Positions 5,211-64,000 of a DNA stretch of 64,000 bases are shown here, in pieces. The stretch lies in contig CAWKPF010000002.1 in the NCBI GenBank assembly GCA_963851415.1, positions 2,374,526 through 2,438,525 on the forward strand. The letters run 5' to 3'. A model generated the notes under the pieces. The model had not been told where the DNA came from. It searched no databases and saw nothing but the letters and a program-made list of their open reading frames with translations. Each line of letters starts with the position of its first letter. The stretch's first letter is position 1. Source of the DNA: an uncultured Acidobacteriota bacterium. Its GTDB lineage: Bacteria; Acidobacteriota; Thermoanaerobaculia; Multivoradales; Multivoraceae. The position numbers and the translations under genes were made by a program.

Positions 5211-5310
5211 GCGTCGGTCAAGATAGCACGCGGGAGATAATGAAAGCAGACGCACTCCGTGCCGAGCGACTCCTCGAAACACGGGGACGCGAGATCGAGA
5301 CCCCTGGGAA

Positions 5311-5730: not shown

Positions 5731-5873
5731 CTGCGATCGCTCAGTGCTCGACTGGTTTCGAGAAGCTCGAGCGGCGGGTCGGGGGCGACTGACGGCGAGT
5801 GGCGTCAGGCCCCGGTCCCCTTCTCTGTCCGCTCGTTCGCTGCACAGTCGGCTCGATCGCCAGACCGAAGAGG

Positions 5874-24057: not shown

Positions 24058-24157
24058 GGAAGCGCTCGGGGGCTGGTGCCTCCTGCGGTCTTCAAAACCG
24101 TTTTGTCGTATGGGATGCCATGCGATGGGTGGGTTCGATTCCCATGCGCTTCCGCCA
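24058..24157 (+). tRNA. selC: tRNA-Sec (selenocysteine tRNA, anticodon UCA)
   Basis: 100 nt. 8-bp acceptor stem GGAAGCGC/GCGCTTCC, discriminator G, encoded CCA. 6-bp D-stem GGGGGC/GCCTCC with 4-nt loop TGGT. Anticodon loop cTTCAaa (U33 then TCA). Long 9-bp variable arm GTCGTATGG/CCATGCGAT. T-arm GTGGG-TTCGATT-CCCAT. Same GGAAG…CTTCCGCCA ends as E. coli selC. Confidence 0.8.
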
Positions 24158-43802: not shown

Positions 43803-44278
43803 TTCAGGGGGCCGGTGGGGCCGCGGCCGACGACGCTCGACCATGCGGACGTCGTTCCCGCATCGAAACCATCGGCGAAGATCTCGCTGCACACGAGTGT
43901 CGGGTCTTTCTCGAGATGCACGTTCGTCGCGCTCACCTGCGAGGCTCCGAGGACAGCCATCGCCTCCCCGACGCAGGCGGTCTTCATGTCAAAGTTCCTC
44001 AGCACCACCGGACCGCCTTCCGATTCGATCCGGAGCGAGCCGGCGATGATGGTCGTGTCCTCCGCAGGACCGGCCAGAGTGAGACCTCGACCGACGGTGA
44101 TCGCTTCGGTGTAGGTACCGGCCGAGAGCTGGACCGTGGTGCACGATCCGTCGAGCACGGCACTCTGAATGGTCGCGTGGGAGCCGGGCACACTGCAGAT
44201 CTCTGCAGCGTGTGCAGCTGGGGCCGTCGCAGCCAGAGCGACCATCGATAGCCGAGCAAGACGTGAGTTTCTGAGCAT
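43799..44278 (-). CDS. small secreted protein with right-handed beta-helix-like N-terminal repeat
   Basis: Signal MLRNSRLARLSMVALAATAPAAHAAE. …ATIQSAVLDGSCTTVQLSAGTYTEAITVGRGLTLAG resembles pectate-lyase/NosD-type beta-helix caps. Translationally coupled to the downstream gene. Confidence 0.4.
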   Translation of the reverse strand: MLRNSRLARLSMVALAATAPAAHAAEICSVPGSHATIQSAVLDGSCTTVQLSAGTYTEAITVGRGLTLAGPAEDTTIIAGSLRIESEGGPVVLRNFDMKTACVGEAMAVLGASQVSATNVHLEKDPTLVCSEIFADGFDAGTTSAWSSVVGRGPTGPLK

Positions 44279-44416
44279 CAGGCCTCCTGACAAAGCGGTA
44301 GAGAAGCTCGCTGGTCCAGAAAGCGTCGTTGTTCGGCGAAAAGGATCACCCGGCGCTATCTCGAGAAGACCAAGCGCTCGAGACGACCAACGTCATGGGC
44401 AACAAGGAGGCGCGAA

Positions 44417-44790
44417 GTGGAGCCCCGAATCGAGGTTCTGGTGGCCAAGAAGCTGGTCGGCATGCGAGCCGAGATGTCCCTCGCCGTGGACCGACCCCTC
44501 AGCTCCGGCGGGCGTTCATGCCTGTGGGCGTGGTCGCCGATGTGCGCCACGGCGCGCTCTCGGAGGACCCCGGATCCCCGATGTACTACCGCACGCGCAG
44601 TTTCGACATTGGGCCAGCGGCCGTGCGATGTCGACTCTGGAGCTGGTGGTGCGCTCCCCACTCGAGCCGAATCGCTACTCAGTCGTCCGACAGTCGGCTC
44701 ACCCGCGATCGCCGTTTGAACCTGTGGCGAAACACCGCAGCTCCCCTGGCGGTTTCTCCCCGCCAATCCGTATAGGAGGGCGAAGAGGAG
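44417..44790 (+). pseudogene. possible GyrI-like (effector-binding domain) gene broken by at least 2 frameshifts
   Basis: MEPRIEVLVAKKLVGMRAEMSL (GyrI-like start) in one frame, …FMPVGVVADVRHGALSEDPGSPMYYRTRSFDIGP… in a second, …ELVVRSPLEPNRYSVVRQSAHPRSPF… in a third. No frame is intact. Confidence 0.3.
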
Positions 44791-44797
44791 GTGTCTC

Positions 44798-45364
44798 ATG
44801 CAGAGGAAAACCACGACATTCGCCGCAATCACGCTCCTGGGCGCCCTCTGGGCCGCCACCGGCCAGGCCGAAGATCCGTCAGATCACCCGATGATCGGGT
44901 CTCCGGCGCCCCCCTTCGAGCTCGAGTCCGTCAACGGCCACCCGCCGCTCTCGCTCGGAGAGCTGCGCGGCGGCTACGTCGTGGTGCACTTCGCAGCCAG
45001 CTGGTGACCGTTCTGTAATGCGGAGGCTCCGCATTTAGAAGCAGTGTCCCAGAAGTACCGGAACCGGAATGTCCGGGTCCTGATCATCGACGTGATGGAG
45101 GACTCGAAGGTGGCCTCCGACTGGGCGAAGCACCACGGTTTCAGCTTCCCGGTACTGCACGATGCCGAGGGCGAGGTCAGCACCCGTTACGCCCCCGAGG
45201 AAGTGCTCCCCGATCTGCCTCGGGACCAGGTCCCCATCGCCTCGAATCTGATCATCGATTCAGAAGGCAAGATCCAGTTCTACACGCTCCTCGACAGCCG
45301 GAACTTCGACGCCAAGCTGATTGCGCTACAGGCTCGACTGGACGAGCTGCTGGCACAGGACTGA
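44798..45364 (+). CDS. selenocysteine-containing thioredoxin-fold thiol:disulfide oxidoreductase (TlpA/ResA/redoxin family), Sec encoded by in-frame TGA at 45005-45007
   Basis: ORFs 44798-45007 and 45044-45364 are in the same frame. Read-through gives signal peptide MQRKTTTFAAITLLGALWAATGQA…VVVHFAASW-U-PFCNAEAPHLEAV…, i.e. the redoxin motif WCxxCRxExPxL with U in place of the first Cys. selC is present at 24058. Confidence 0.75.
45018..45034 (+). promoter_or_regulatory. bacterial SECIS-like hairpin 10 nt downstream of the UGA-Sec codon
   Basis: atgcgg-aggct-ccgcat (6-bp stem, extendable to 9 bp with flanking a/t) begins 11 nt after the TGA. Apical loop contains G, as in bacterial SECIS elements. 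Confidence 0.5.
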
Positions 45365-48424: not shown

Positions 48425-48647
48425 CTCGAGCTCGTTGCCGAGATCCTCGGTGATGACGCGGCCATCGGTGAAAAGGCCGATGTCTCCGAGCATCGCCCTG
48501 CGGCGATCACCGAAGCCGGGAGCCGTGACCGCGACGACCTGCAGGATGCCACGCAGCCTGTTTGACCACGAGGGTGGCGAGAGCCTCGCCCTCAACGTCC
48601 TCGGCGAGGATCGCGACGGGACAACCCTGCTTGGCGACCTGCTCGCC
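48425..48647 (-). pseudogene. groEL: orphan internal fragment of a groEL (Hsp60) gene (apical-domain region, about 75 codons) with one frameshift
   Basis: Frame a: …[29 protein letters not shown]. Frame b: [43 protein letters not shown]. Compare E. coli GroEL …[69 protein letters not shown]. No N- or C-terminal GroEL sequence flanks it. Confidence 0.6.
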
Positions 48648-48896
48648 TGATGCGCAACGAGCCGTGGTACGCGCAGCGAGCGGGGCAAGATCCGGCCAGG
48701 AGATGGGTGAGTCTCCGCTCGAGAGGATCCGACGCACGGGTCCCGCTAAAAGGTATACGAATCCGGTGGTCTGAGCTCCAATCCATGGATTCTCGTCTGC
48801 GATCTCGGGCGCGCGGGATGAAGATGGCCTGCTTCCTCATCCAGACCGCCGAGATCCGAATCCGGCTCGGGGCTAGGCCCGTCCGACACTCTTTGT

Positions 48897-51461
48897 TTGG
48901 TGCCCATGTCACTCGATCAGACAGCCGCCGGCGCGAGCGGCCGCGAACCCGCTACGAAAACGAGCTTTCCCCGATACCTGGCGCTGGGCTTCCAGCTCGG
49001 GTTGTTTCTGATCCTGGTCTATCGATTCAACATCGACAGCCGGGCATTTCTGCATGTCGGGATCCTCGCCTTCTTCGGCTTCGCGGTTCACTACTTGCTT
49101 CCCTTCCGATTTCGGCTCCCGTTCTTCCTCTTTCTCTCGCTGATCTCGATCGAGCTGGTGCTGGGGTTTCAAGGGGAGAGATGGTCGCTCCCTGGGCTCG
49201 TGCAGGGGGCTTGGATCATCGGGATCGGTCTCGCTCTGATCGGTCTGGCTCACCTGCCGATCGCGTTCTCCATCCGAGTCGGATTGGTAGCGGCAGTGGC
49301 GGTCGTCCTCGCTTTTCTGCGCGCCAGCGACCTGGCCCTGCCATGGTCGACATCGATCTGGCCGATTCTGGCCTCGATGTTCATGTTCCGGCTGATCGTC
49401 TACATGTACGACCTCCGCCACGAGAAGTCGCCGGCGTCGTGGTCGACGCGCCTGTCGTACTTCTTCATGCTGCCCAACGTCTGCTTCCCGCTCTACCCGG
49501 TGGTCGACTATCAGGCATTTCGGCGCACCTACTACGACAAAGCGGACCGACACCAGATCTACCAGGTCGGAGTGAAGTGGATGGTGCGCGGAGTCGTGCA
49601 CCTGTTGCTCTATCGGCTGGTCTACCAGAATCTGGTCCTCGATGCCGACGACGTGAAAACCGCGGGAGATCTCCTGCAGTATCTGTTCTGGCCCTTCCTG
49701 CTGTACCTCCGGGTCTCGGGCTACTTCCACATCATTGTCGGGATGCTGCACCTGTTCGGCTTCAATCTGGCCGAGACCCACCATCTCTACTATCTGGCTT
49801 CGAGCTTCACCGACTTCTGGCGCCGCATCAACATTCCGTGGAAGGACTTCATGATGAAGATCTTCTACTACCCGGTGTACTTGAGGATCAAGAGTTGGGG
49901 AAGCACGACCGCCCTCGTGGTCACCACTCTGTTCGTCTTTCTGATGACGTGGATCCTCCATGCCTATCAGTGGTTCTGGATCCGCGGCACGTTCCTGCTC
50001 ACCTGGAACGATGGGCTGTTCTGGGCTGCTCTGGGACTGTTGGTCGTAGGGGCATCTCTGTACGAGGTGAAGTACGGTCGCAAACGCCGACTCGCGGGAA
50101 GCTCGATGTCGTGGCGTGAGGCGATGCCGATCGCACTGGGCGCGATCGTGGTGTATTGCACCATCTCCTTGCTGTGGTCCTTCTGGAGCGCTCACTCGGT
50201 CGGAGAGTGGTTGTCGGCATGGCGAGCTCTAGGGCATTGGGAGCTGTCCGATCTTCCGGCCGTCGTCATCGGTCTGGCCGTTCTCACGGCGATCGGAGTC
50301 GGCTCCGCGATGGATGCGCGGGGGGTCATCGAGCGCCCTTTCAGCTTTTCGAGGTCCTTCGCCGGAGTGGTCGCGGGGGCCGCGATCCTGCTCGGGATGA
50401 CGCTGCCCGTGGTGACGGAGGGACTGTCTCCCCGCGGCCGAGAGATCGTTACCGATCTCAGGGCCTCAGAGCTCAACTCGCGAGATTTCGAGAAGCTCGA
50501 GCGCGGCTACTACGAGAACCTGATCGATGTCGGGAGCTTCAATCCGGAGCTCTGGGAGGTGTATCGGACGCGGCCCGCTGATTGGCGCAATCTCCGCGAC
50601 ACGGACGCCGTGTTCTACACGGACGGATTTCCGTGGTACGAACTGCGGCCCGATAGCGAGACCCGCCACAACGGCGCCCTGGTGCGGACCAATCGGTGGG
50701 GGATGCGCGATCGCGACTACGAGAAGGTGCCCGCGGAAGGGGTCACGCGAATCGCTATCGTCGGAAGCTCGTTCGTGTTCGGCTCGGGGGTCGAGAACGA
50801 AGAGATCTTCGAGAGTCTGCTCGAGACGCGTCTGAACTCCTCCCGCAGCTCGAGTGAGGTTGCCTACGAAGTGCTCAACTTCGGTGTTGCCGGCTACGCT
50901 CCCCTCGAGCATCTGGAGGTGATCAAGGAGCGAGCCCTCGAGTTCGAGCCGGAGGTCCTCCTGTACGTGGAGCATGCCGATAGCGGGAACAACGTCGTGA
51001 TCCAACTGGTCGCGACGATGCAACGGGGGATCCGGCCCGCCTACGACTATCTCGACGACATCATTGCCCGGGCCGGGATCGACGAAACGACGATCGATCA
51101 ATCGAGCGATCCGAACGTTCTCAAGGCGAAGTTGGGCCCCTACCAGGAGGAGTTGCTTGCCGGGCTCTATCAGCGGATGGTCGAGGCCTGTCGCGAAGAC
51201 GGTGTCACCCCCGTGTGGGTCTACCTCCCTCGACCGGAAGAGACCGAGCGGGGCGGACCGCCCGAGCCCGAGACGCGGCTCGCTCGCGAGGCTGGATTCG
51301 AGTTGCTCGACCTGACGGGTGTCTACGGGGAGGGAGATCTCGGGGAGCTCTGGATCGCCCGCTGGGATCACCATCCGAATGCCGAGGGTCACCGGCGGAT
51401 CGCCGAGGGTCTCTACCGAATGCTCGAGGAGAGGGAGCTGCTCGATTCGGTCGAGCAGTGA
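48897..51461 (+). CDS. MBOAT-family membrane O-acyltransferase (DltB/AlgI-like) fused to a C-terminal periplasmic SGNH-like (DltD/AlgJ/AlgX-like) domain
   Basis: About 11 TM helices. FTDFWRRINIPWKDFMMKIFYYPVYL aligns with the AlgI/DltB FWRRWHISLSxWxRDYxY motif (His not obviously conserved at that position). C-terminal 380 aa are soluble with IAIVGSSFVFGSGVENEE… (SGNH block-I-like) and …WDHHPNAEGHRRIAEGLY (DxxH-like). Confidence 0.7.
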   Translation: MVPMSLDQTAAGASGREPATKTSFPRYLALGFQLGLFLILVYRFNIDSRAFLHVGILAFFGFAVHYLLPFRFRLPFFLFLSLISIELVLGFQGERWSLPGLVQGAWIIGIGLALIGLAHLPIAFSIRVGLVAAVAVVLAFLRASDLALPWSTSIWPILASMFMFRLIVYMYDLRHEKSPASWSTRLSYFFMLPNVCFPLYPVVDYQAFRRTYYDKADRHQIYQVGVKWMVRGVVHLLLYRLVYQNLVLDADDVKTAGDLLQYLFWPFLLYLRVSGYFHIIVGMLHLFGFNLAETHHLYYLASSFTDFWRRINIPWKDFMMKIFYYPVYLRIKSWGSTTALVVTTLFVFLMTWILHAYQWFWIRGTFLLTWNDGLFWAALGLLVVGASLYEVKYGRKRRLAGSSMSWREAMPIALGAIVVYCTISLLWSFWSAHSVGEWLSAWRALGHWELSDLPAVVIGLAVLTAIGVGSAMDARGVIERPFSFSRSFAGVVAGAAILLGMTLPVVTEGLSPRGREIVTDLRASELNSRDFEKLERGYYENLIDVGSFNPELWEVYRTRPADWRNLRDTDAVFYTDGFPWYELRPDSETRHNGALVRTNRWGMRDRDYEKVPAEGVTRIAIVGSSFVFGSGVENEEIFESLLETRLNSSRSSSEVAYEVLNFGVAGYAPLEHLEVIKERALEFEPEVLLYVEHADSGNNVVIQLVATMQRGIRPAYDYLDDIIARAGIDETTIDQSSDPNVLKAKLGPYQEELLAGLYQRMVEACREDGVTPVWVYLPRPEETERGGPPEPETRLAREAGFELLDLTGVYGEGDLGELWIARWDHHPNAEGHRRIAEGLYRMLEERELLDSVEQ

Positions 51462-51803: not shown

Positions 51804-53366
51804 GTGCCGAAGAACGGACTTCATCGCCCGCTTTCGCTGTCTGCGCAGCGTGTTCCCGACCGGCTGGCTGTCTCGGATCCGAGTCGGGGCCGGACGATCA
51901 GCTACAAGGAGTTGGACTCTCTCTCCGATCGTCTGCGCGACCGGCTGCGGGCGATCGGCGTCGTGCCTGGGGACCGGGTCGGAATCTGCCTGGGCAAATC
52001 GATCAGCAGCGTCGCCTCGGTGTTCGGAATCCTCAAGGCCGGCGGCGGCTATGTGCCGGTCGACTCCACGGCTCCGCCAGAGCGCAACGCGTTCGTCTTC
52101 AGCAACTGCGAGGTCGCGGCGGTGCTCGTGGAGGAGCGTTTCGAGGAGGCACTACGGCAGGAGCTTTCGACAGCGGGGAGCACGCCTCCGTTGTTGGTGC
52201 TTCAGACCGAGACGGAAGAGGACCCCCTGCGGGCAGCTCTCGACCGGGCGGACCAGGAGAGTGCGGCCGAGCCCGTGCCTACGTTCGAGGCCGAGCCCGG
52301 CGACCTGGCCTACATCCTCTATACCTCGGGTTCGACGGGAAAGCCGAAGGGCGTGACTCTGTCGCATGAGAACGCGACCTCTTTCGTCGAATGGTGCTCA
52401 GAGGTCTTCTCGCCTCGTGAAGACGATCGGTTTTCCTCGCATGCGCCTTTTCACTTCGACCTCTCGATCCTCGATCTCTACCTTCCGATTCGACACGGCG
52501 CCTCCATCCACCTGATCGGCGAGCAGCTCGGAAAGAACCCGGCGGGCATGGTGCAGCTCCTGTCAGAGGCCGACCTGACGGTCTGGTACTCGACCCCTTC
52601 CGTGCTCAGATTGATGCTCGAGCATGGAGGTCTGGCGGATCTCGAGAGCCACTCTCTTCGCTACGTGCTCTACGCTGGCGAGGTCTTTCCGGTCAAGCAC
52701 CTCAGAGAGCTGGCGAGAGTCGTCACGGGGCCTCGCTATTTCAACCTCTACGGCCCGACGGAGACCAACGTCTGTACCTATCACGAGACACCTGCGATCG
52801 TGCCTGATGAGCGTTCGAAGCCCTATCCGATCGGCAGGGTTTGCTCCCACCTGCGGGCGCGAGTGGCCGACGAGGACGGGAAGCCCGTTGCCGTTGGCGA
52901 AGAGGGAGAGCTCCAGATCTCGGGCCCAGCGGTCTTGCAGGGGTACTGGAACCAGCCGGAACGGACCGCCGCCGCTTTCATCGAGGACGACACGGGAAGG
53001 TGGTACCGGACGGGTGACCTCGTCATCGAAGACGAAGAGCGGGTCTACACCTTCGTGGGGCGACGGGATCGTATGGTGAAGCGGCGCGGGTACCGCATCG
53101 AATTGGGCGAGATCGAGGCCGCCTTCTACCGGCATCCCGAGATCTCCGAGGCCGCAGCGGTGGCGGTGTCGGATCAAGAGGGGGTCACCATCAAGACCTT
53201 CTACTCGACCCGCGAGGGCACACCGCTCTCGATGATCGAGCTCAAGCGTTTCTGCGCGGCGCGTCTGCCGATGTACATGATCCCGGACCGGTTTACGCAC
53301 CTGGAGGTTCTCCCAAAGACCTCGACCGACAAGATCGACTATCAGCTTTTGAAAGAGGTCGAATAA
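51804..53366 (+). CDS. DltA-like adenylation enzyme (AMP-dependent synthetase/ligase, carrier-protein ligase)
   Basis: AMP-binding motif LAYILYTSGSTGKPKGV; YRTGDLV…; 520 aa, same length class as DltA or stand-alone NRPS A-domains. Start is 10 nt after the carrier gene. Confidence 0.8.
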   Translation: MPKNGLHRPLSLSAQRVPDRLAVSDPSRGRTISYKELDSLSDRLRDRLRAIGVVPGDRVGICLGKSISSVASVFGILKAGGGYVPVDSTAPPERNAFVFSNCEVAAVLVEERFEEALRQELSTAGSTPPLLVLQTETEEDPLRAALDRADQESAAEPVPTFEAEPGDLAYILYTSGSTGKPKGVTLSHENATSFVEWCSEVFSPREDDRFSSHAPFHFDLSILDLYLPIRHGASIHLIGEQLGKNPAGMVQLLSEADLTVWYSTPSVLRLMLEHGGLADLESHSLRYVLYAGEVFPVKHLRELARVVTGPRYFNLYGPTETNVCTYHETPAIVPDERSKPYPIGRVCSHLRARVADEDGKPVAVGEEGELQISGPAVLQGYWNQPERTAAAFIEDDTGRWYRTGDLVIEDEERVYTFVGRRDRMVKRRGYRIELGEIEAAFYRHPEISEAAAVAVSDQEGVTIKTFYSTREGTPLSMIELKRFCAARLPMYMIPDRFTHLEVLPKTSTDKIDYQLLKEVE

Positions 53367-54515
53367 ATGAACCTGGACTTGACCAAAGAACAAGTCGCCC
53401 TTGCGGGCGAGATTCGTCGTTTTGCTCGCGAAAGGCTCAATGAGGGTGTCCTCGAGCGCGATCGAGAGCAGACTTTCTCCCGAGAGCTCTGGAAGGAGTG
53501 CGGTGAGATGGGTTTGACCGGCCTTCCCGTTCCGATCGAGTACGGGGGGACCGGGTTGGATCCGCTGTCGACTGCCGTTGCGCTGGAGGCCTTGGGTCAC
53601 GGTTGCGAGGACTCCGGACTGGTCTTCTCCATCTGCGCCCATTTGCTCGCCTGCGCGGTGCCAATCTGGAAGTACGGGACCGACGAGCAGAAGGGCAGAT
53701 ACCTTCCGGGGCTTTGCGACGGAACCCTCATCGCGGCCAACGCGATGACCGAGCCCGACTCGGGCTCCGACGCCTTTGCACTCCGAACTCGTGCCGAGCG
53801 AGACGGCGACGGCTACCGGCTCAACGGCACCAAGATCTTCGTGACCAATGGCCCGGTGGCCGATCTGGCTCTGGTGTTCGCGGTGACGGACCCCGAGAAG
53901 GGTTATCACGGAGGCATCACTGCCTTCGTGGTGGATGCCGACACCGAGGGTTATCGCAAGGGCCAGCAGTTCGAGAAGCTCGGTCTGCGAACTTCTCCCA
54001 ACGGAGAGCTGTTCTTCGAAGACATGTATCTTCCCCCGACGGCGGTGCTCGGTGGCGAGGGAGGAGGATCCCAGGTCTTCGTCAGCGCGATGGAGTGGGA
54101 GCGAGGTTGCCTGTTCGCCAGCCACGTGGGCACCATGGAGCGGCTGCTCGAGAAGGCCATCGAGTATGCACGCACTCGGAAGCAGCAGGGCCAGACCATC
54201 TCGAAGTTCCAGGCCGTCTCCCACAAGATCTCGGACATGAAGATCCAACTCGAAGCGGCGCGACTGCTCACCTACAAGTCCGCATGGAACCTCGAGCGGT
54301 CGAGGAGGGTGTCTTTGGACGCTGCCATCTCGAAGACCTTCGTCAGCGAATCGTTGGTACGGAGCGCGCTCGACACCATTCAAGTGTTCGGGGGCTACGG
54401 GTTTCTCGCCGAATACGAGATCGAGCGCACCCTGCGCGACTCGGTGGGAAGCACGCTGTACTCGGGCACTTCGGAGATCCAACGCAACATCATTGCCGGC
54501 TGGCTCGGGCTGTAG
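53367..54515 (+). CDS. acyl-CoA dehydrogenase family flavoenzyme
   Basis: 382 aa with ACAD N/M/C domains (…GLTGLPVPIEYGGTGLD…, …AANAMTEPDSGSDAFALRT…, …QVFGGYGFLAEYEIERTLRDS…). Start ATG directly abuts the ligase stop (TAAATG). Confidence 0.85.
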   Translation: MNLDLTKEQVALAGEIRRFARERLNEGVLERDREQTFSRELWKECGEMGLTGLPVPIEYGGTGLDPLSTAVALEALGHGCEDSGLVFSICAHLLACAVPIWKYGTDEQKGRYLPGLCDGTLIAANAMTEPDSGSDAFALRTRAERDGDGYRLNGTKIFVTNGPVADLALVFAVTDPEKGYHGGITAFVVDADTEGYRKGQQFEKLGLRTSPNGELFFEDMYLPPTAVLGGEGGGSQVFVSAMEWERGCLFASHVGTMERLLEKAIEYARTRKQQGQTISKFQAVSHKISDMKIQLEAARLLTYKSAWNLERSRRVSLDAAISKTFVSESLVRSALDTIQVFGGYGFLAEYEIERTLRDSVGSTLYSGTSEIQRNIIAGWLGL

Positions 54516-54708
54516 GGGGTGGCAGGCAGGTAACTGGCCCCTGGTGCGATGTTGCGACGGTTCCAGATCGCCGGCGAAACGCTCGTCATATCTCGGTGGC
54601 CGAAGTCCGCTGGATGTCCGTCGGCAGGCGCACCGAATGGTGGCCGAGCTCGGCTAGTTCGGGGACCGACGGCTCAGAGCCCGCCGGCCTCCAACATGCC
54701 GAGCTCCT

Positions 54709-55728
54709 TCACCTCGGCGCGCCCGAGGTCACCTGCCACTGGTTGAGTCTTCCGGACTCGAAGTTGTCGCCGAACACGGTCGCCCTCGATCTGAACCAGT
54801 CCCGTGACGTGGCGTCTGTCTTCAGGAAGTCCATCAACATTCCCGCGACCTTCGCTCGCCCGATCATCGACGGGTGCGTGCCATCGGCTCCGAGATCGCT
54901 GCAGGCGTACTCCAGGCCGTCCGAACGACCCGGTTGACCGCCCGGCTGTCCGTCCGGGCCGAGACCGTCCGCCCAGAGATACGGGCCCCACGCCAGCCAG
55001 GGAGCTCGAACCGTTCCGGCGGCGGGATTGAAGTTCAGACCCGGGTCGCCGGCCAGTTGATCCTCGATCAGCCACTTCACCGCGAACCCACCCTGATAGG
55101 CAAACGGTTCGGGGTTGAGCGGCAGATTGGCATAGCCGGCGTAGATGCGGCTGCTCAAGTAGGCGATCTCGAGGTTCGGAAAGCGCTCCTTGAGGGTCTG
55201 AACGGTGGTGCGCAGGAGGTCGCGCAGCCAGAGGCTCCGTTCCGGAAACGTCTGCGGTGAAAAGGGGCCGGCGGAGGCGGCGAGCTTGATCCAGGCGACC
55301 TGGACCTGCATCGGCGTGAGGCCGGCCGCGCTCAGCTTCGAATCGAGAAGGCTCCAGGCCAGACTCCCCGGGTCGGCCCACGAGACGGCGTCCATGCTTC
55401 CCTCCGCCCCGTTGACGGGAACGATGTGCGGCTTGATATCCGGGTCGTCGCTGGCCATCGAGATGAAGGTGTCGAACTCACCCTCTGTGTTCGACATCCC
55501 AACGGACAGCAGTCCGATCTTCCCCGAGGTGGGGGCCGCCTGTCCTTGCGGATCCAAGGGTCTGAGCGAGCGAGCGAAATACAGGCCGGCCGACTCGTGC
55601 GCTCCCGGCCGCGTGTTGGACCCGCCCGGATAGAGTCCGCCCTCTTCTCCCTGGTAGGTACCCCTGCCCAGGTCGGTGAGGGGGACCAGTCCAACGGAGG
55701 TGTTGCTGCACGCTCCCCCGGCTCCTCC
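54709..55728 (-). CDS. secreted SGNH hydrolase, copy B (N-terminally truncated, in-frame continuation of copy A)
   Basis: Block I IGLLSVGMSNT, block V DGTHPSMIGRAKVAG (DxxH). 95-100% identical at nucleotide level to 55729-56785 and 63168-64000. Confidence 0.6.
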   Translation of the reverse strand, partial: GGAGGACSNTSVGLVPLTDLGRGTYQGEEGGLYPGGSNTRPGAHESAGLYFARSLRPLDPQGQAAPTSGKIGLLSVGMSNTEGEFDTFISMASDDPDIKPHIVPVNGAEGSMDAVSWADPGSLAWSLLDSKLSAAGLTPMQVQVAWIKLAASAGPFSPQTFPERSLWLRDLLRTTVQTLKERFPNLEIAYLSSRIYAGYANLPLNPEPFAYQGGFAVKWLIEDQLAGDPGLNFNPAAGTVRAPWLAWGPYLWADGLGPDGQPGGQPGRSDGLEYACSDLGADGTHPSMIGRAKVAGMLMDFLKTDATSRDWFRSRATVFGDNFESGRLNQWQVTSGAPR

Positions 55729-56785
55729 GGTCGAGCTCGATCCGAACCAGTCCCGTGACGTGGTGTCCGTCTTCAGGAAGTCCATCAACATTCCCGCGAC
55801 CTTCGCTCGCCCGATCATCGACGGGTGCGTGCCATCGGCTCCGAGATCGCTGCAGGCGTACTCCAGGCCGTCCGAGCGGCCCGGTTGACCGCCCGGCTGT
55901 CCGTCCGGGCCGAGACCGTCCGCCCAGAGATACGGGCCCCACGCCAGCCAGGGAGCTCGAACCGTTCCGGCGGCGGGATTGAAGTTCAGACCCGGGTCGC
56001 CGGCCAGTTGATCCTCGATCAGCCACTTCACCGCGAACCCACCCTGATAGGCAAACGGTTCGGGGTTGAGCGGCAGATTGGCATAGCCGGCGTAGATGCG
56101 GCTGCTCAAGTAGGCGATCTCGAGGTTCGGAAAGCGCTCCTTGAGGGTCTGAACGGTGGTGCGCAGGAGGTCGCGCAGCCAGAGGCTCCGTTCTGGAAAC
56201 GTCTGGGGGGGAAGACGGGCCGCCCGAGGCGGCGAGCTTGATCCAGGCGACCTGGACCTGCATCGGCGTGAGGCCGGCCGCGCTCAGCTTCGAATCGAGA
56301 AGTCTCCAGGCCCGACTCCCCGGGTCGGCCCACGAAACGGCGTCCATGCTTCCCTCCGCACCGTTGACGGGAACGATGTGCGGCCCGATATCCGGGTCGT
56401 CGCTGGCCATCGAGATGAAGGTGTCGAACTCACCCTTCGTGTTCGACATCCCGACCGACAGCAGTCCGATCTTCCCCGAGGTGGGGGCCGCCTGTCCCTG
56501 CGGATCCAAGGGTCTGAGCGAGCGAGCGAGATCGAGGCCGGCCGACTCGTGCGCTCCCGGCCGGGTGTTGGACCCGCCCGGGTAGAGTCCGCCCTCCTCT
56601 CCCTGGTAGCTACCGCTGCCCAGGTCGGTGAGCGGGATCAATCCAACGGAGGTGCTGCTGCACACTCCCCCCCGGTGCACGAGGTGGGACTCGGCGCCCG
56701 CAGGGCCGGCGAGCACCATGAGTGCAACGAGGACCGTGGGCGCCAGCCCGAGCCCGAGCCTCTCCGGGCGTACTCTGAATCTCAT
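55729..56785 (-). pseudogene. secreted SGNH hydrolase, copy A (signal peptide intact; +1 frameshift in G7 tract 56205-56211; C-terminal 20 aa replaced by fusion to copy B)
   Basis: MRFRVRPERLGLGLAPTVLVALMVLAGPAGA signal with GGAGAG RBS. Copy C and copy B read …KLAAS(G/A)GP(S/F)SPQTFPERS… across cttcccccc (G6/none), whereas copy A has cttccccccc (G7), shifting the frame. Confidence 0.6.
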
Positions 56786-57022
56786 TATAGGACTCTCCAA
56801 AAATCGACAAATGCAAGATAGATCACAACCAGATCTCCCATTGTTGCCGATCTGGCGGCCCGATAGCCAGCCCCGGGGAGGGAGACCGCCGGGGGACCAC
56901 TGCGGGAACGGCCCGGTTCTCGAGGGCGTCGCGCTACGGAAGCGGCTCGTATGCAGGTACCTTCGAGGCTCGCGCCGAAGTGGATTCCGATCGATTCTGT
57001 CGGAGTTCTAGGAGCACAGTGC

Positions 57023-57260
57023 TCCGTGCGGCGTGACGAGCGGGAGCGTCCCGGCGAGCTGCTGCACCTGGGCACCAAGAAGCTCGCCCGGATCCCGAAG
57101 GGCCCGGGGCCCATCGGCATCCATGGGGATCGCTCTCGGCGGGTCAAGGGGGCTGGGAGCACGCCCACGCGGCCGTGGACGACCACACTCGCCTCGCTCT
57201 CATCGAGGTCCTACCGGACGAGTCGGTGACGCGCTTCCTGCGCCGTTGCGTGGCGGGTAC
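57023..57260 (+). mobile_element. IS481-family transposase remnant (rve integrase-core fragment, truncated at both ends, one frameshift)
   Basis: Frame 1: …VRRDERERPGELLHLGTKKLARIPKGPGPIGIHGDRSRRVKG. Frame 3: (GWEHAHAA)VDDHTRLALIEVLPDESVTRFL. Compare IS481 …PGELVHIDVKKLGRIPDGGGWRAHGR…GYDYVHSAVDDHSRLAYSEILPDEKGATAAAFL. Frameshift at aagggggctgg (~57146). Confidence 0.55.
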
Positions 57261-57354
57261 GCCGAGCTGGATCTGCTACTGCAAATCTCGAGAGGTCTCC
57301 CCCATGGCACAGACTCCGAGCCGCCGCCTGAACAACCTCATGAGACGTAACATC

Positions 57355-57399
<45 letters not shown>

Positions 57400-57526
57400 C
57401 CCTTCCATCGAGCCCCCATGTACTGGCAGCGAAGCCGCAGGCGGGCTCGACCATCCCGCTTGGAGTTGGAAACCCGACGCGACGAACGGGAGGTCACCCT
57501 TGGGTGCTCCCGCTCGTCGCGAGGGA

Positions 57527-58978
57527 TCAGGGCAGGGTGTAGGTCACCACCAGCTCGGGATAGTTCGCCGAACTGGGAGTCTCTCCGGAGTAGTAACCGA
57601 ACGCGTCGTTGGCTTCGTCGTCGTCGTCGTCGAGCTCGAAGTACACCCGCATCTGGGTGATGCCGGTGGGGTCGATGGCCGCCAGGCCAGCGCTGTCGAG
57701 CGTGCCTTCGGACCAGTCGCGAATGTTCGGGGCCCCTGACAGGGTCGCCGACTGCGTCACCGTCGCCGGGCTCTCGAAGTCGCTCGGCTGCAAGGCCGGA
57801 TTGCCGCTGAAGCCACCGGTCTGCACGTCGACGTGACAGGCTCCGAGTGCCAAGAACGGATTTCCCCCGAATTGAGGACCGCGCCGAATCCTGAGGGTCG
57901 CCATCTCGATCACCGCGCCCTCGGGTAGCAGCGACGTGTCGAAAGAGAAGATCGCCTTGATCTGCTTGTCCAACCCGTCGTCGCCGATCCGCACGGCCGG
58001 CCCCTGACTGATGACACCACCGACGTTGCTGTCCTCGCTCGACTCGAACACGGTACCGTCGTCGGCGCCGATGGAATAGAGGATCATCTCCTGCACTCCG
58101 CCAGCGGGACCGACGACCAGCGAGATCGAGTCGACGTTGACGTTGCCGTCGGCATCGGTCGCGGTAGCCGTGATCAGGTGCGAGCCCTCCGAAAGAGCGG
58201 CGGAGAACGAGCCTCCGGTGCCGATGGCGCCGTCGAGGCTCGACTCCCAGGCCAGACTTGCCGTGACGTCACCGTCCTTCGCGTCGTTCGCCGACCCGAG
58301 GAAGGCGATGAGCTCGCCCGCATCGAAGGGCTCGCCGTCCGTCGGTGCGCCGATGGTCACCACCGGTGCCGCCGTGCCCTCGAAATAGCTCAGCGCGTGA
58401 TCGAACGCTTCCGGACCGATGGCGTAGCCCATGAGGCGCCCGGGAATGTCGTCCGCCGGCGGATGGATGCCGCCCCAGATGCGCGAGAGGCTCGTCTGGT
58501 CCGACGCGTCGTGGTAGGTCGCCCACTGCAGCGTCGATCGTCCACGCTCGGGCCGTCCTCGAACACGAGGAACTCGTTCTGCGGCGCCGGGAACTCGCCG
58601 AGCCCGCCCGGGAAGTACGTCGAGCCCGTGAGCAGCGTCATGCACCTCGGCGGCCGCGCGGCTGTAGGTGCTGTGCCCGGAGACGTAGCCGGCGAAGGGC
58701 GGCGTCACGAAGGTCGGCCGCTGATAGGGCCACCAGTCCTCGGCGAGGATCCAGCCGACGCCGGCGACGTCGGTCGTCCGGGTCTGCGATGAAGTCGGGG
58801 CCGCGCCAGGCGCGGATCGCGATCTTGCCGACGTCGCGCGGCGAGGTGCTCGTGGCGCTCGCCCGGCGCGCTGCTCGTCGGCCGTGACGACCTCGATCGA
58901 AGCCCGGACGCAGCGCGATGCCGTCCGGGTCGTAGCGACGGGACCTGGCGGATCGGAGCACTGGCCGCGCTCGGCCAT
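57527..58978 (-). CDS. intact C-terminal portion of a secreted PAP2/vanadium-haloperoxidase-like protein (PAP2 motifs, Ig-like domain, conserved ~170-aa beta-sandwich domain)
   Basis: PAP2 signature pieces …YQRPTF…VSGHST…SRIWGGIHPPADD (KxxxxxxRP…PSGH…SRxxxxxHxxxD). Ig-like segment …AWESSLDGAIGTGGSFSAALSEGSHLITATATDADGNV…. Ends …MRVYFELDDDDDEANDAFGYYSGETPSSANYPELVVTYTLP. Confidence 0.55.
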   Translation of the reverse strand: MAERGQCSDPPGPVATTRTASRCVRASIEVVTADEQRAGRAPRAPRRATSARSRSAPGAAPTSSQTRTTDVAGVGWILAEDWWPYQRPTFVTPPFAGYVSGHSTYSRAAAEVHDAAHGLDVLPGRARRVPGAAERVPRVRGRPERGRSTLQWATYHDASDQTSLSRIWGGIHPPADDIPGRLMGYAIGPEAFDHALSYFEGTAAPVVTIGAPTDGEPFDAGELIAFLGSANDAKDGDVTASLAWESSLDGAIGTGGSFSAALSEGSHLITATATDADGNVNVDSISLVVGPAGGVQEMILYSIGADDGTVFESSEDSNVGGVISQGPAVRIGDDGLDKQIKAIFSFDTSLLPEGAVIEMATLRIRRGPQFGGNPFLALGACHVDVQTGGFSGNPALQPSDFESPATVTQSATLSGAPNIRDWSEGTLDSAGLAAIDPTGITQMRVYFELDDDDDEANDAFGYYSGETPSSANYPELVVTYTLP

Positions 58979-60190
58979 GGTAGCGGATCGCGGAGATCGG
59001 ACGGATGTAGTCGTACCAGCCCTTGATGCCCCAGGCGGCGATCGCCACGTCGTGCATCGCGCCGCCGAGCATGAGGTAGACCTTCACGTCCCACTCGAGG
59101 TCGTCGAGCGATCGGCCCCGTCCCGCCGATGCGCTTCTCGACGAGCGGATGATCGGTGACGTAGTTGGCGATCGTGAACCAGTGCCCGGGCGGCGTCTCG
59201 GAGTCCGGGCCGTCGGCCCAGAACTCGGCGAGCACGCGCGCGTAGTCGCCGCGCGGGCACGATCTGCGGCGTGTAGGGCTGGCCGGTCACCGGGTTCACG
59301 GGTAGCCCGTGCCCCAGTCGCCGCCGTCCTCGAAGTCGTAGTAGGCCGCCAGTCGCCCGGATCCGGCAGCGGGCGTTGCCGATCGAGGCGGGCGAGATGT
59401 CGATCATCACGCCGTCGGTCGGGTCGAGGTGGCCGACTCCAGACGACGCCGACCATGCTCGAAGCCGTCCAGGTAGTCGTCGCCGTCGGCGGCCGAGCAG
59501 CGGCGGCGGCCCCGGATCGTGGTAGACCCAGTAGTCGAAGCCGTCGCGCGTGGTAGATCGTCAGGTCGTCGGGCGTCGAGCGCGAACGGCGTCGACCTGG
59601 CCCCACTCCGGGACTCAGGAATGGCGGGAAGCCGCCGGGGATCGGGTTGCCGCACTGGTCGATGAAGAAGTCGAGCGCGAGCGGCTGCCAGCGGTTCGGA
59701 TCGACCAGGTCCGGGTTGCCGGGCAGCGCCGGCGAGCAGCGGCGGGTTGACCGGCTCGTAGTACAGGTTCGCGTAGCCGTTCGGCCTCGTTCGAGCCGTC
59801 GGCGAGGCCGAACGCGATGCACGGCCGCGGCGATGCGGTTGCCGAGCGCCGCGGGCGGTCGCGTCGCCCGCGGTCGTCGTGAATCGCGTGTCGTAGCCGA
59901 GCTCGGCCATCCGATCGTCGCACGAGACGGCAGTGATACGCGCGCCCGGCGAGCTCGCGAAGCGGCAGCTCAGGATGCGGTAGGCCGCGTAGCTGATCGC
60001 CTCTTCGCGGGCCGCCGGCACGTCCGCCGCCGTGGCGCTCTCGTCGTGGAGGATCGTGGTCGGCCGTGCCGTCGTAGGCCGCCCAGGCGTCCCACATCGC
60101 CACCGAGACGTGGAAGAGGTTGCGCGCGTGCACCGTCGGCCGCGCGAAGTCGCGGCGGATCGCCGTCGAGCAGCTCCTCGTTCCACTGCC
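57527..60190 (-). pseudogene. PAP2/vanadium-haloperoxidase-like gene whose 5' two-thirds (58500-60200) is scattered over at least 4 reading frames
   Basis: Real-looking haloperoxidase pieces in different frames: ARNLFHVSVAMWDAWAAYDG (59615-60445 frame), YANLYYEPVNPPL (59407-60186 frame), LDDLEWDVKVYLMLGGAMHDVAIAAWGIKGWYDYIRPISAIRYHG (58638-59822 frame), LAEFWADGPDSETPPGHWFTIANYVTDHPLVEKR (58705-59235 frame). Confidence 0.45.
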
Positions 60191-62974
60191 GGGCGACGGA
60201 ACCCTCGGTCTCGACGGCGAAGTACGACACGACCAGCTGAGGTCGGGACGCGGAATCGGCGGCCTCGCCAGGATAGTAGCTGACGAAGTCGGTGAGGTTG
60301 TCGTCATCGTCATCGATCTCGAAGTAGACCCGCATCTGGGTCGTGCCGGTGCGACTGATGGCGGACAGACCGAGAAGATCGAGCGTGGCTTCGGACCAAT
60401 CACCGTTGGCCGAGGCCGAGGAGAGAACCGCCGCTCGCGGCGCATCCGCAGCAGCCTGGAAGTCGGAGGCCTGAAGGGCCGGATTCCCGCTGAAGCCGCC
60501 CGTCTTCACGTCGACATAGGCAGTGCCATGCGTAGTGAACGGATCGGACCCCCCGGATCCGCCGCGCTGGATTCGCAGGACCGCAGACTCGATCACCGCT
60601 CCTGCGGGTAGCACGGACGTGTCGAACGAGAACACGGCGACGGTCTGACGGTCCTCGTTGTCGTCGCCGATCCGAATCGCGCCACCGCCCGACAGGCTCT
60701 GGTTGAAGACCCCTCCGACGCCGCTGTCCTCGCTCGACTCGAAGACCCTTCCGTCCTCGGTACCGATCGACAGCAACGTCTTCTCGATCGTCTCACCCGT
60801 CGGAACGGTCACGTCGATGATCACGGAGTCCTCGGCCAGATTGCCGTCGCCATCGACCACCGATGCGGTGATCTCGTGCGTGCCTTCGGTCAGCGACACG
60901 GAGAGGTTGCCCCCGATGCCGAGATCGCCGTCGCGATCGGAGGTCCAAAGAATGCTCCCCGCCAGATTACCGTCCTCTGTATCGCTGGCAGTGCCGGCGA
61001 AGTCGATGAGCGTGCCGGTCGTGGAGGTCGAACCATCCGCAGGGGAGGTGATCGTCACCGTGGGAGGAAAGCCCCCCGCCGGAGTGACCACGAGATTGAC
61101 CGCGGCCTGCCCGACATTGCCGTCGATGTCGGTGACGGAGGCGAGGATCACATGCGCGCCCTCCGACAGCACCGCCGAAAAGCTGCCTCCCGAACCGATG
61201 GCTCCGTCGAGGCTCGACGTCCACGTGAGATCGCTCGAAAGATCGCCCTCGTCGGGGTCGTCGGCACTGCCCTCGAAGTCGATCAGATCGCCCGCCATGA
61301 ACAGCGCACCCTGGCTCGGCTGGACGATGGTGACCACCGGCAGCTCGGCAACCTCCTGCACCGTGTAGACCTGGTTCACTGCGACGCCGACCAGCGAGGT
61401 GTCCACCAATCCGCTCGGCCAGAAGACCTCGACCAGATCGACCACTGCCGCATCGCCGAGGCCGAACGACAGCCGCAGGCTGTCCTGGGAGTGCGCGCTG
61501 CTGCCACCCAGCACCTGCCGCACGTATTGATTGCCACCGGCAGTGACGCGGACCAGAGCGCCAATGGCGCTCCTGTTCGAAGCGCCCGGAGTCCCAGCGC
61601 CCTGGAGATCGAACTGCACCCAGTTGTTGGTCGGCGCGGTGTCGTTGCGCAGAAGCTGAACCGTTCTTCCATGTTGCACGACGATGATGTCGACATCTCC
61701 GTCCCGGTCGTAGTCGGCAATCGCGCTTCCTCGACCCTGGCTCCCGCTTCGACTGGGAATCCCGACCTTGGTGAACGTACCGTCACCATTGTTCCGGAAC
61801 AGGTCGTTGGACCCTGAAGCGATCCGCGACACGAAGAGGTCCTCGTACCCGTCGCTGTCCACATCCACGAAGTTCGCCCCCCACGACTTGGCGGACGCGA
61901 TCCCACGATCACAGGCCGAGTCGTCCGCGAAAAGGATGCTGGCGCCACCGAGATTCTCGTACAAGGCGTTCGTGCCGCCGCAGGAGTTCAGCGGCTCCCA
62001 ATCCGTGACGTAGACATCGAAGTCGCCGTCGAGGTCGATGTCCCCGATGGTGAGCCCCATCGCGAAGCGGGAGTCGTTACCGACGCCTAGCGAGTCGCCG
62101 GCCACGTCCAGGAATCCTGTTCCGTTCTGGTTCTCGAAGATCTGGTCCTGATCCTGGGGCGTGATGTTGCCCACGTAGACATCGGGCCAAAGGTCGGAGT
62201 TCAGGTGGCCCGCGATCGTCACCAGAGCATCCCGGATGATCAAATCGAGACCGACCTGCGTCGAGACATCCTCGAACTGGCCGTTGCCGAGATTGCGAAA
62301 GAGTCGGTCCTGCACCCAGGGACTGTTGTTGCCCTCATTCCAGTGCCCGACGTAAAGGTCGACGTAGCCGTCGCGATCGTAGTCGAGCCAGTTGGCGCTG
62401 ACCGAGACGTACGACGGGCCATCCGGCAACGGGGACGGCAACAGATCATCGACCCCGGCCGCCGCGGCGACCTCCTCGAACAGGGGCTCCCCCGGGATCA
62501 CCTGATGTCCGTTTTCCACCCAGAGGTTGCGCAGCAGCTGATTCGGAGGCGAGCCGTTGCCCTTTTTGGTCCCTTGGACGGGCACCGCAACGTAGATGTA
62601 GATGTCCTGATCACCGTCGTTGTCGTAGTCGGCAAAGACAGAGCCCATCATCTCGATCGCGGGGTCCAGCGGCAGCAGCTCGTCCACATTGGTGAAGGTG
62701 CCGCCGTCGTTGCGGAACAGGTGATACGGCATATTCGTGGTGCGTCCATGCCGTTGACCGCGAACAGGTCGTCCCAGCCGTCGTTGTTGAAGTCGATCCA
62801 GTTCAATCCGAGGCCGTGGAAGGACTCGGCGACGAACACGTATCCATTCAGACCCTGTGCGGCGGTCTGATCCGTCAGGACGATCGCGGGGCTTTGCGCC
62901 GCGAGCGGGGCCACGAGCCCGACGGTAAGGATCAGAATCAGCAACGGCTCGATCATCTCTCTCTGCGATCTCAT
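60190..62974 (-). CDS. very large secreted CRTAC1-like multidomain protein (FG-GAP/VCBS propeller, ASPIC/UnbV, three Ig-like domains, ~170-aa beta-sandwich domain); frameshift near 62735; possibly continuous with the haloperoxidase-like gene downstream
   Basis: Signal MRSQREMIEPLLILILTVGLVAPLAAQS (ORF 62648-63133) ending …NNDGWDDLFAVNGMDAP, then frame switch to MPYHLFRNDGGTFTNV… (ORF 59970-62732). Repeated D(Y/F)DxDGxxD motifs; ASPIC/UnbV block …SNRSAIGALVRVTAGGNQYVRQVLGGSSAHSQDSLRLSFGLG…; Ig-like repeats …SSLDGAIGSGGSFSAVLSEGAHVILASVTDIDGNV…. The domain …LLSIGTEDGRVFESSEDSGVGGV…MRVYFEIDDDDDNLTDFVSYYPGE…PQLVVSY also occurs in 57527-58978. Confidence 0.55.
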
Positions 62975-63167
62975 GGGCGTCCTCTCACGAATCCGCGGCT
63001 GCGGACACTGAAGAAATGAACTGATTCGGAACAGCTCATATCGATACTGCAAGGAACATGCCCAACGAGCACGGCTGGCCGCCCCTCCAGAGATGGCCGG
63101 GGGCTCCTGAGAGGAGAGCCGGATCGAGCGCACCGAACCGTGGCGAGCTCGGCTACTGCGGGACGGC

Positions 63168-64000
63168 TCAGTGCCCGCGGACCTCGAGCATGCCGAGCTC
63201 CCTCACGGAGAGCGCGCCCGAGGTCACCTGCCACTGGTTGAGGTTTCCGGACTCGAAGTCGTCGCCGAACACGGTCGAGCTCGATCCGAACCAGTCCCGT
63301 GACGTGGCGTCTGTCTTCAGGAAGTCCATCAACATTCCCGCGACCTTCGCTCGCCCGATCATCGACGGGTGCGTGCCATCGGCTCCGAGATCGCTGCAGG
63401 CGTACTCCAGGCCGTCCGAACGACCCGGTTGACCGCCCGGCTGTCCGTCCGGGCCGAGACCGTCCGCCCAGAGATACGGGCCCCACGCCAGCCAGGGAGC
63501 TCGAACCGTTCCGGCGGCGGGATTGAAGTTCAGACCCGGGTCGCCGGCCAGTTGATCCTCGATCAGCCACTTCACCGCGAACCCACCCTGATAGGCAAAC
63601 GGTTCGGGGTTGAGCGGCAGATTGGCATAGCCGGCGTAGATGCGGCTGCTCAAGTAGGCGATCTCGAGGTTCGGAAAGCGCTCCTTGAGGGTCTGAACGG
63701 TGGTGCGCAGGAGGTCGCGCAGCCAGACGCTCCGTTCTGGAAACGTCTGGGGGGAAGACGGGCCGCCCGAGGCGGCGAGCTTGATCCAGGCGACCTGGAC
63801 CTGCATCGACGTGAGGCCGGCCGCGCTCAGCTTCGAATCGAGAAGGCTCCAGGCCCGACTTCCCGGGTCGGCCCACGAGACGGCGTCCATGCTTCCCTCC
63901 GCCCCGTTGACGGGAACGATGTGCGGCTCGATATCCGGGTCGTCGCTGGCCATCGAGATGAAGGTGTCGAACTCACCCTTCGTGTTCGACATCCCGACCG
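63168..64000 (-). CDS. secreted SGNH hydrolase, copy C (intact C-terminus; N-terminus beyond window end)
   Basis: …GMSNTKGEFDTFISMASDDPDIEPHIVPVNGAEGSMDAV…DGTHPSMIGRAKVAGMLMDFLKTDATSRDWFGSSSTVFGDDFESGNLNQWQVTSGA…. The only copy retaining the ancestral C-terminal tail. Confidence 0.7.
   Translation of the reverse strand, partial: VGMSNTKGEFDTFISMASDDPDIEPHIVPVNGAEGSMDAVSWADPGSRAWSLLDSKLSAAGLTSMQVQVAWIKLAASGGPSSPQTFPERSVWLRDLLRTTVQTLKERFPNLEIAYLSSRIYAGYANLPLNPEPFAYQGGFAVKWLIEDQLAGDPGLNFNPAAGTVRAPWLAWGPYLWADGLGPDGQPGGQPGRSDGLEYACSDLGADGTHPSMIGRAKVAGMLMDFLKTDATSRDWFGSSSTVFGDDFESGNLNQWQVTSGALSVRELGMLEVRGH

Follow-up and report, generated by a model that had tools for sequence, protein, structure and literature searches.

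The window analysed here is a 64,000 nt stretch of contig CAWKPF010000002.1 from an uncultured Acidobacteriota bacterium of the family Multivoraceae. Its end (54.7-64 kb) carries three copies of an esterase-like gene of about 1 kb, designated A, B and C, all on the minus strand, and a giant secreted-protein gene that separates copy C from the fused copies A and B. A short relic of an IS481-family transposase and an AG microsatellite lie between the giant gene and copy A (Table 1). An earlier note on this DNA had described three near-identical SGNH hydrolase genes, and the number and similarity of the copies were borne out by the open reading frame (ORF) listing, repeat finding and three-way alignment, with nucleotide identities of 95.9% for A-B, 98.4% for A-C and 97.4% for B-C.

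Copies A and B form an internal tandem duplication with a period of 951 nt, which equals 317 codons, and the A/B junction at 55729/55728 (DWFGSSST followed by GGAGGACSNTS) is therefore in frame. The alignment confirmed that copy A lacks the C-terminal end and copy B the signal peptide, as had been proposed. The fusion had also been called clean, but in the deposited sequence copy A is broken by the +1 shift at a C7 run, so that A-B is not a single ORF in the window and is divided into two (55478..56800 and 54709..56109). A frameshift-aware alignment found one break in copy A, none in copy B (against the homologue P0006) and none in copy C. An imperfect 9 nt tandem repeat (GCTCCCCCG, 2.1 copies) at 55712-55730 sits exactly on the A/B junction; it may be the footprint of the illegitimate recombination behind the tandem duplication.

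We compared the window with L001, an 18.2 kb contig of an independent metagenome assembly (ENA ERZ25039600 contig_72241). L001 emerged from exact-sequence look-ups of the window ORFs and is the sole near relative; a search of GTDB representative genomes gave a best match of 55% identity, and in JGI metagenomes there was no exact 27-mer and the best match to the A-B protein reached 57%. The gene order of L001 is that of the window, namely copy C, the giant gene, the same intergenic region, A-B and an acyl-CoA dehydrogenase gene. Its A-B gene is an intact ORF of 691 aa (P0122), in which the C-tract of copy A reads TGCCCCCC and is in frame. Copy C, which the window end truncates, encodes 386 aa at full length (P0121), and the same sequence is present in L001. 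Orthologous copies are 99.6-100% identical between the two assemblies, while paralogues differ by 2-4% and the copy-specific variants are kept in both. Since L001 has the same three copies and the same tandem fusion, these are not an artefact of one assembly, and the duplication is real. Outside one divergent module of the giant gene, the two assemblies differ by 14 substitutions and three insertions or deletions over about 8 kb (54200-58440 and 60195-64000).

Table 1. Features of the esterase-like gene locus, in window coordinates
Feature	Position	Strand	Description
Copy A	55729..56785	-	ATG at 56785, Sec-type signal peptide and first catalytic core; lacks the ancestral C-terminal tail (ORF and alignment)
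Copy B	54709..55728	-	Second catalytic core, C-terminal tail and stop codon; starts at the mature N-terminus, lacks the signal peptide
Copy C	63168..64000	-	Separate paralogue that keeps the ancestral C-terminal tail; truncated at the window end
C7 homopolymer	56205..56211	-	G7 on the plus strand; +1 frameshift splitting copy A; copy C has C6
304 nt identical tract	A 55880-56183; B 54929-55232; C 63424-63727	-	Zero differences among A, B and C, and also among the three L001 copies
Long hairpin, copy B	54613..54733	-	Stop codon and 3' flank, between convergent genes; part of the duplicon; RNA fold -77.2 kcal/mol, z -4.4
Hairpin equivalent, copy C	63108-63233	-	Stop codon and 3' flank; RNA fold -70.6 kcal/mol, z -2.5
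Upstream region of copy A	56786..57004	-	Part of the duplicon; 56786-56906 and ~56959-57004 also occur upstream of copy C
IS481-family transposase scar	57023..57270	+	Short, frameshifted; NF033577 match
AG microsatellite	57356-57391		Perfect (AG)18, then GGAGGGAG; 128 nt past the giant gene stop, 570 nt upstream of the copy A ATG
Giant secreted-protein gene	57527..62974	-	5,448 nt, ATG at 62974 to stop at 57527 (Pfam/NCBIfam, internal repeats, homologue alignments)
FG-GAP/ASPIC	~62890-61360	-	Giant gene domain, after the signal peptide
Two Big domains	~61340-60785	-	Giant gene domains
DNRLRE-like domain 1	60770-60222	-	Giant gene domain
VHPO module	58440..60195	-	Vanadium-haloperoxidase-like (DUF6851 and VCPO_2nd); 71.6% GC, 1.75 kb
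Big domain	58366-58139	-	Giant gene domain, after VHPO
DNRLRE-like domain 2	58075-57527	-	Giant gene domain
1 nt deletion	62744..62745	-	GGACGGC to GGACGC; puts the signal peptide and the ~77 initial codons out of frame with the remainder of the gene

The family of the esterase-like protein has over 6,000 members at E<=1e-5, most of them unnamed sequences from metagenome bins, chiefly those of Acidobacteriota, Chloroflexota and Planctomycetota. The SGNH label given to the protein earlier had no support from family models or sequence profiles: no Pfam or NCBIfam family matched at E<=1, and a profile search of PDB sequences returned nothing relevant. Support came instead from structure prediction. 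For copy B, an AlphaFold2 model that drew on 70 homologues reached a predicted local distance difference test score (pLDDT) of 90.3 and a predicted template modelling score (pTM) of 0.89, and all of the top 17 Foldseek matches in the PDB have the SGNH/GDSL fold, with template modelling scores of 0.31-0.60 normalised to the target. These include the peptidoglycan O-acetyltransferase PatB (7trr, E 1.3e-5), the PAF acetylhydrolase 1fxw, sialate O-acetylesterases and Bacteroides GDSL-like lipases. The model has the three-layer alpha/beta/alpha arrangement with a central parallel sheet.

The motifs of the SGNH superfamily were located on this model. For block I, G77-M78-S79-N80 is invariant in 71 sequences and lies between the strand 70-77 and the helix 79-94; for block V, D282, G283 and H285 (DGxH) are invariant and precede the last long helix (288-304). 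The nearly invariant G107 and the invariant A108 after strand 2 may represent block II. A clear G-x-N-D motif for block III was not found; strand 4 is followed instead by a conserved S192-S193-R194. The predicted fold resembles those of PatB, the PAF acetylhydrolase alpha subunits and sialate O-acetylesterases (Foldseek E 1e-5 to 1e-3, probability ~1.0), and the protein shares with them secretion, an invariant Ser after strand 1 in G-x-S-x and an invariant D-x-x-H before the last helix. In contrast, identity to the solved structures is just 10-16%, the domain has about 300 aa against about 200 owing to insertions, and block I reads GMSN and not GDS(L). At the level of predicted fold and motifs the protein is a member of the SGNH superfamily, and its family is an unmodelled, larger (~300 aa) branch of it. 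The model and the motifs suggest that the protein most likely hydrolyses esters or transfers acyl groups by a Ser-His-Asp mechanism, its substrate being extracellular.

Two-domain relatives were found among the top matches (P0002-5, P0011, P0012 and P0016). The halves of P0004 are 71% identical and those of P0005 65%, and in each protein the halves are each other's best match, while P0002/3 and P0011/12/16 form separate groups of two-domain proteins. As judged from these sequences, this implies at least four independent tandem duplications in the family besides A-B. Because two-domain forms originated repeatedly, the A-B architecture is recurrent and presumably useful rather than debris.

The copies also carry a shared structure at their 3' ends. 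The 3' flank homology of copies B and C, repeat family D9, includes the long hairpins at the stop codons, which could be terminators or REP-like (repetitive extragenic palindromic) elements carried in the duplicon. The 5' arm of the hairpin encodes the odd, non-conserved C-terminal protein tails of B and C. We considered whether this tail (VFGDDFESGNLNQW...) is a LamG stub and rejected it, as the motif occurs in one of 119 homologues and in none of the LamG-bearing ones. An Rfam scan of 50-64 kb gave no matches, and scans for sigma-70 promoters and terminators yielded nothing informative.

The distribution of variants was examined in six sequences, that is, A, B and C in both assemblies. In the 5' ~490 nt, about 30 sites at which A and C agree and B differs are mixed with sites at which B and C or A and B agree, and at the 3' end B=C and A=C sites are mixed again, whereas a tract of 304 nt is without a single difference. 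The chance of 304 nt without a difference at the divergence of the 5' half (~6.5%), computed from the variant counts, is ~1e-9, which indicates that the copies are being homogenised. The tract is a product of gene conversion among A, B and C. The mosaic of A=C and B=C blocks around a fully identical tract is the same as in concerted evolution by gene conversion. The A-B repeat, exact and in frame over 317 codons, is likewise what unequal or illegitimate recombination produces in internal tandem domain duplications, with nothing unusual; the difference from the usual cases is that the same esterase-like family made two-domain proteins independently several times.

The limits of the duplicon were drawn from a self-comparison of L001, in which the C side and the A side are homologous beyond the gene itself. 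L001 2384-3554 matches L001 9886-11057, with about 114 nt directly upstream of the genes included (2384 onward vs 9886 onward), and L001 2377-3554 matches window 56906-55728. Further upstream, a 46 nt block (L001 2340-2385 vs 9782-9827) and a 204 nt block at 88.7% (L001 2083-2285 vs 9198-9397) also match, the latter covering the final ~70 nt of the giant gene together with the intergenic DNA on its 3' side. The L001 2083-2285 remnant lies past the window end, upstream of copy C. As this remnant shows, the duplicon at first also contained the 3' end of the giant gene. On the downstream side, the homology of copies B and C continues for 40-80 nt beyond their stop codons and takes in the hairpin. 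The duplicon measures ~1.6 kb.

The DNA between the copies had been taken for about 5.4 kb of large secreted-protein genes with at least six frameshifts. The size and the breaks are there, but the region holds one gene with at least 24 disruptions. DUF6851 was detected by Pfam in P0124, VCPO_2nd is a weak match in a window ORF, and NF033679 matches the giant gene weakly (NCBIfam). A Big plus DNRLRE-like unit has been duplicated within the gene at an older date (57539-58366 vs 60222-61340, ~68% nucleotide identity), and the two units flank the VHPO module. Intact single ORFs that combine FG-GAP/ASPIC and VHPO exist elsewhere (P0246 with 1,262 aa, P0250, P0268, P0299 and P0334), which shows that the fusion is a genuine architecture. 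Such fusions of FG-GAP/ASPIC (CRTAC1-like) with DUF6851/VCPO_2nd recur in metagenomes, one cluster having 158 member sequences, and P0249 has the reverse domain order. A literature search found no paper linking FG-GAP/ASPIC and haloperoxidase-like domains. The frame-corrected module aligns over ~596 codons at 72-76% to ~650 aa proteins named vanadium-dependent haloperoxidase, and bacterial VHPO-like proteins also occur fused to FG-GAP/ASPIC modules; in contrast to these, the module of the giant gene has a Big-DNRLRE unit on either side and, as deposited, contains at least 23 frameshifts.

Frame breaks were counted with a purpose-written protein-to-DNA alignment that allows frameshifts. All of the 23-26 breaks of the VHPO module lie within 60164-58538, and ~90% of them are single extra bases (+1). 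A control alignment of the FG-GAP part gave exactly one break, the deletion at 62744, so that the gene has at least 24 in total, at least 23 of them in the VHPO module. The corrected window module aligns to P0130 residues 21-620 or P0138 residues 34-630, with both VHPO domains contiguous only after 23-26 frameshifts are corrected; it contains no in-frame stop codons and, over ~596 codons, reaches 72-74% identity with homologues of unrelated organisms. The module is not intact in L001 either, where it has 8-9 breaks and 76% identity to homologues. Fourteen single-base insertions could be placed precisely against L001; nine of these are not homopolymer extensions, most are C or G, and inspection by eye revealed no methylation-like common motif around the inserted bases. 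Viterbi segmentation by codon usage, adopted with the same codon scores because the GC3 frame plot and the smoothed codon log-odds plot were too noisy, gave at least eight same-strand frame switches and a loss of coding signal in the VHPO module, and no comparable cluster in the other 54 kb of the window. The Big-DNRLRE2 part downstream has a strong coding signal and is 99.9% identical to L001. The 62744 deletion and the C7-run shift are both missing from L001.

The VHPO module is also the sole segment within the 54.7-64 kb region in which the window and L001 diverge. Across 58440-60195, ~16% of positions mismatch, with sharp edges and an enrichment at third codon positions. The frame-corrected modules gave a synonymous divergence (dS) of 0.40, a non-synonymous divergence (dN) of 0.13 and a dN/dS of 0.33, a ratio that the alignment method biases downwards. 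At the differing sites the window allele matches the outgroup at 23 and the L001 allele at 46. Pure sequencing noise was rejected as the cause of the divergence by the third-position enrichment, the dN/dS and the 23 outgroup-matching window sites. By sequence comparison, the two modules are real alleles shaped by purifying selection in near-identical flanks. A second divergent stretch, window 52296-54150 vs L001 12270-14466 (acyl-CoA synthetase and acyl-CoA dehydrogenase), differs by 6-24%, and the divergence fades gradually towards 54150; these genes are intact in the window and frameshifted in L001. Each assembly is a mosaic relative to the other, and L001 is possibly a long-read contig that is chimeric or of low coverage.

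These results favor the view that the frame breaks in the VHPO module, at 62744 and in the C7 run are consensus errors, for which we estimate a probability of roughly 0.6. Poor assembly, named earlier as an alternative, is the better reading of the frameshift cluster given the pattern of the breaks. According to two published reports, long-read and collapsed-allele consensus errors can mimic pseudogenes (PMC12007338, PMC8445201). The cases covered there share with this locus the clustering of single-base insertions or deletions at a divergent allele and a multi-copy repeat in otherwise intact coding sequence, while the insertion-biased, non-homopolymeric breaks found here are not the commonest nanopore signature. 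The errors would sit where read placement and polishing are hardest, namely in the module with a divergent second allele and in the multi-copy repeat, places at which reads from different alleles or copies would be mixed or of no use to polishing; the frameshift of copy A is at a homopolymer within such a repeat.

Several observations weigh against this interpretation. The L001 VHPO module is broken as well, and one break is apparently shared (homologue position 231; window ~59590, L001 ~7227), which is unexpected for random errors. The inserted bases are not of the homopolymer type, unlike the classical nanopore error. The smaller number of outgroup-matching sites in the window allele fits some real extra change or decay, and the dN/dS, even with its downward bias, is not very low. 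The artefact is, moreover, inferred from the pattern of the breaks only.

Under real pseudogenisation, frameshift mutations would truly have inactivated copy A and two parts of the giant gene, its start and the VHPO module, and the locus would be a decaying, dispensable accessory one; this is clearly less probable. The deposited sequence contains the breaks, and the gene calls of the source follow them (P0001 with 466 aa, P0123 with 920 aa); the 8-9 breaks in L001, one of them apparently shared, the somewhat more derived window allele and the nearby insertion sequence (IS) scar as a sign of past disruption would all fit decay. Decaying pseudogenes in bacteria show a bias towards deletions and also collect substitutions, contrary to the 9:1 excess of +1 insertions observed here. 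This excess, the absence of stop codons after correction, the similarity still kept to distant homologues (72-74%) and the flanking parts of the same gene, 99.9% conserved with zero other defects, are hard to reconcile with real decay, and the dN/dS of 0.33 also speaks against it.

In a more speculative version, VHPO would be an exchangeable cassette: two old alleles (dS ~0.4) would persist in one population and be swapped by recombination exactly at domain boundaries in otherwise identical flanks, the broken version would be a genuine silenced allele, and the C-tract could add an on/off switch. We consider this improbable; the broken VHPO copy would have to be genuine.

IS-associated duplication, proposed earlier together with a recombination hot-spot, is not supported by the anatomy of the scar. 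A degraded IS481 transposase had been noted, and the segment does match NF033577 in part (E=3.4e-5), but weakly, at 23.5 bits against a cut-off of 224, over profile positions 119-172 of 284 (~54) and with two frames stitched over one frameshift; a Pfam search gave no match for it. What remains resembles the core of IS481-family transposases near the first catalytic region. In contrast to family members, it has ~20% of the transposase left, is frameshifted, has no recognised ends, is non-functional and is wrongly placed to explain the duplication. From its sequence the segment is best regarded as a relic and not a member element. The scar and the AG tract are held by a ~394 nt insertion (~57005-57398) that interrupts the duplicon upstream of copy A and is absent upstream of copy C. 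No inverted repeat pair of at least 25 nt flanks 57005-57398, shorter imperfect ends being outside this search. IS481-mediated rearrangement as the cause of the segmental duplication and of a hot-spot would fit the position of the fragment between A-B and the giant gene, but the fragment is an insertion inside one duplicon, at neither boundary, and is single, without a second IS copy or flanking inverted repeats in the region, which makes this origin very unlikely; the window and L001 also share their gene order. The hot-spot idea is in part supported by the gene-conversion tract and the sharply bounded replacement of the VHPO allele relative to L001, but no rearrangement between direct repeats was seen.

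It is about equally unlikely that the locus is a contingency locus, in which C6/C7 slippage in copy A would switch the two-domain enzyme and (AG)n would modulate expression. The C tract does set the frame of copy A, being in frame in L001 and out of frame in the window, the two sequences compared. However, a tract of 6-7 nt is at or below the length usual for appreciable slippage, and L001 differs by a substitution plus a length change (TGC6 vs TTC7). The AG microsatellite had been reported with 17 units; it is present, but as a perfect run of 18, and its length is polymorphic, with (TC)12 in L001, that is, 12 perfect units against 18. It lies ~85 nt beyond the scar in the same insertion and in no ORF, and the 570 nt that separate it from the start codon of copy A, and that include the IS scar, argue against a role in expression. 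Homopolymers and microsatellites are moreover classic sites of sequencing error. The remaining possibility, a single SGNH gene from which mis-assembly made three copies and a fusion, as the high similarity of the copies and the position of one at the window edge might suggest, is highly improbable, since L001 has three copies in the same order, ~40 copy-specific variants are kept in both assemblies (copy A 99.6% identical between window and L001, A and B 95.9%), the junction keeps the frame exactly and other lineages also have tandem two-domain relatives.

The following history would account for the locus, which we regard as a secreted-protein gene cluster of a high-GC uncultured bacterium. 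A ~1.6 kb duplicon, made up of ~70 nt from the 3' end of the giant gene, the adjoining intergenic DNA, a single secreted SGNH-fold esterase-like gene and the 3' hairpin, would have been duplicated to both sides of the 5.45 kb multidomain gene. In one copy the 951 nt catalytic core would then have been duplicated in tandem and in frame, giving the order signal peptide, core A, core B and tail, and gene conversion would keep the three cores 96-100% alike. An IS481-type element would later have inserted upstream of A-B and been almost wholly deleted, leaving the ~250 nt scar. The giant gene would be one ORF in nature, with FG-GAP/ASPIC, Big, DNRLRE, VHPO, Big and DNRLRE in this order.

Elsewhere in the window, ARAGORN identified a tRNA-Sec gene (anticodon TCA) at 24058-24157 on the plus strand, which is unrelated to the esterase locus. 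The codon-usage segmentation left three stretches of 330-800 nt without coding signal (5077-5876, 44190-44818 and 48646-48974). One of them coincides with a 241 aa ORF (44169..44894), which may have atypical codon usage.

Overall, the locus is an ordinary variable region in which the quality of the sequence calls for caution, and its biology is of a well-known kind. The ~25 changes in 9 kb that look like pseudogenising mutations probably do not reflect biology, and copy numbers or pseudogenes called in this genome near repeats and patches of divergent alleles should be treated with reserve. Neither the esterase-like family, which is without a curated model and has repeated tandem forms, nor the recurrent fusion of FG-GAP/ASPIC with haloperoxidase-like domains is surprising, but both could merit a family description.

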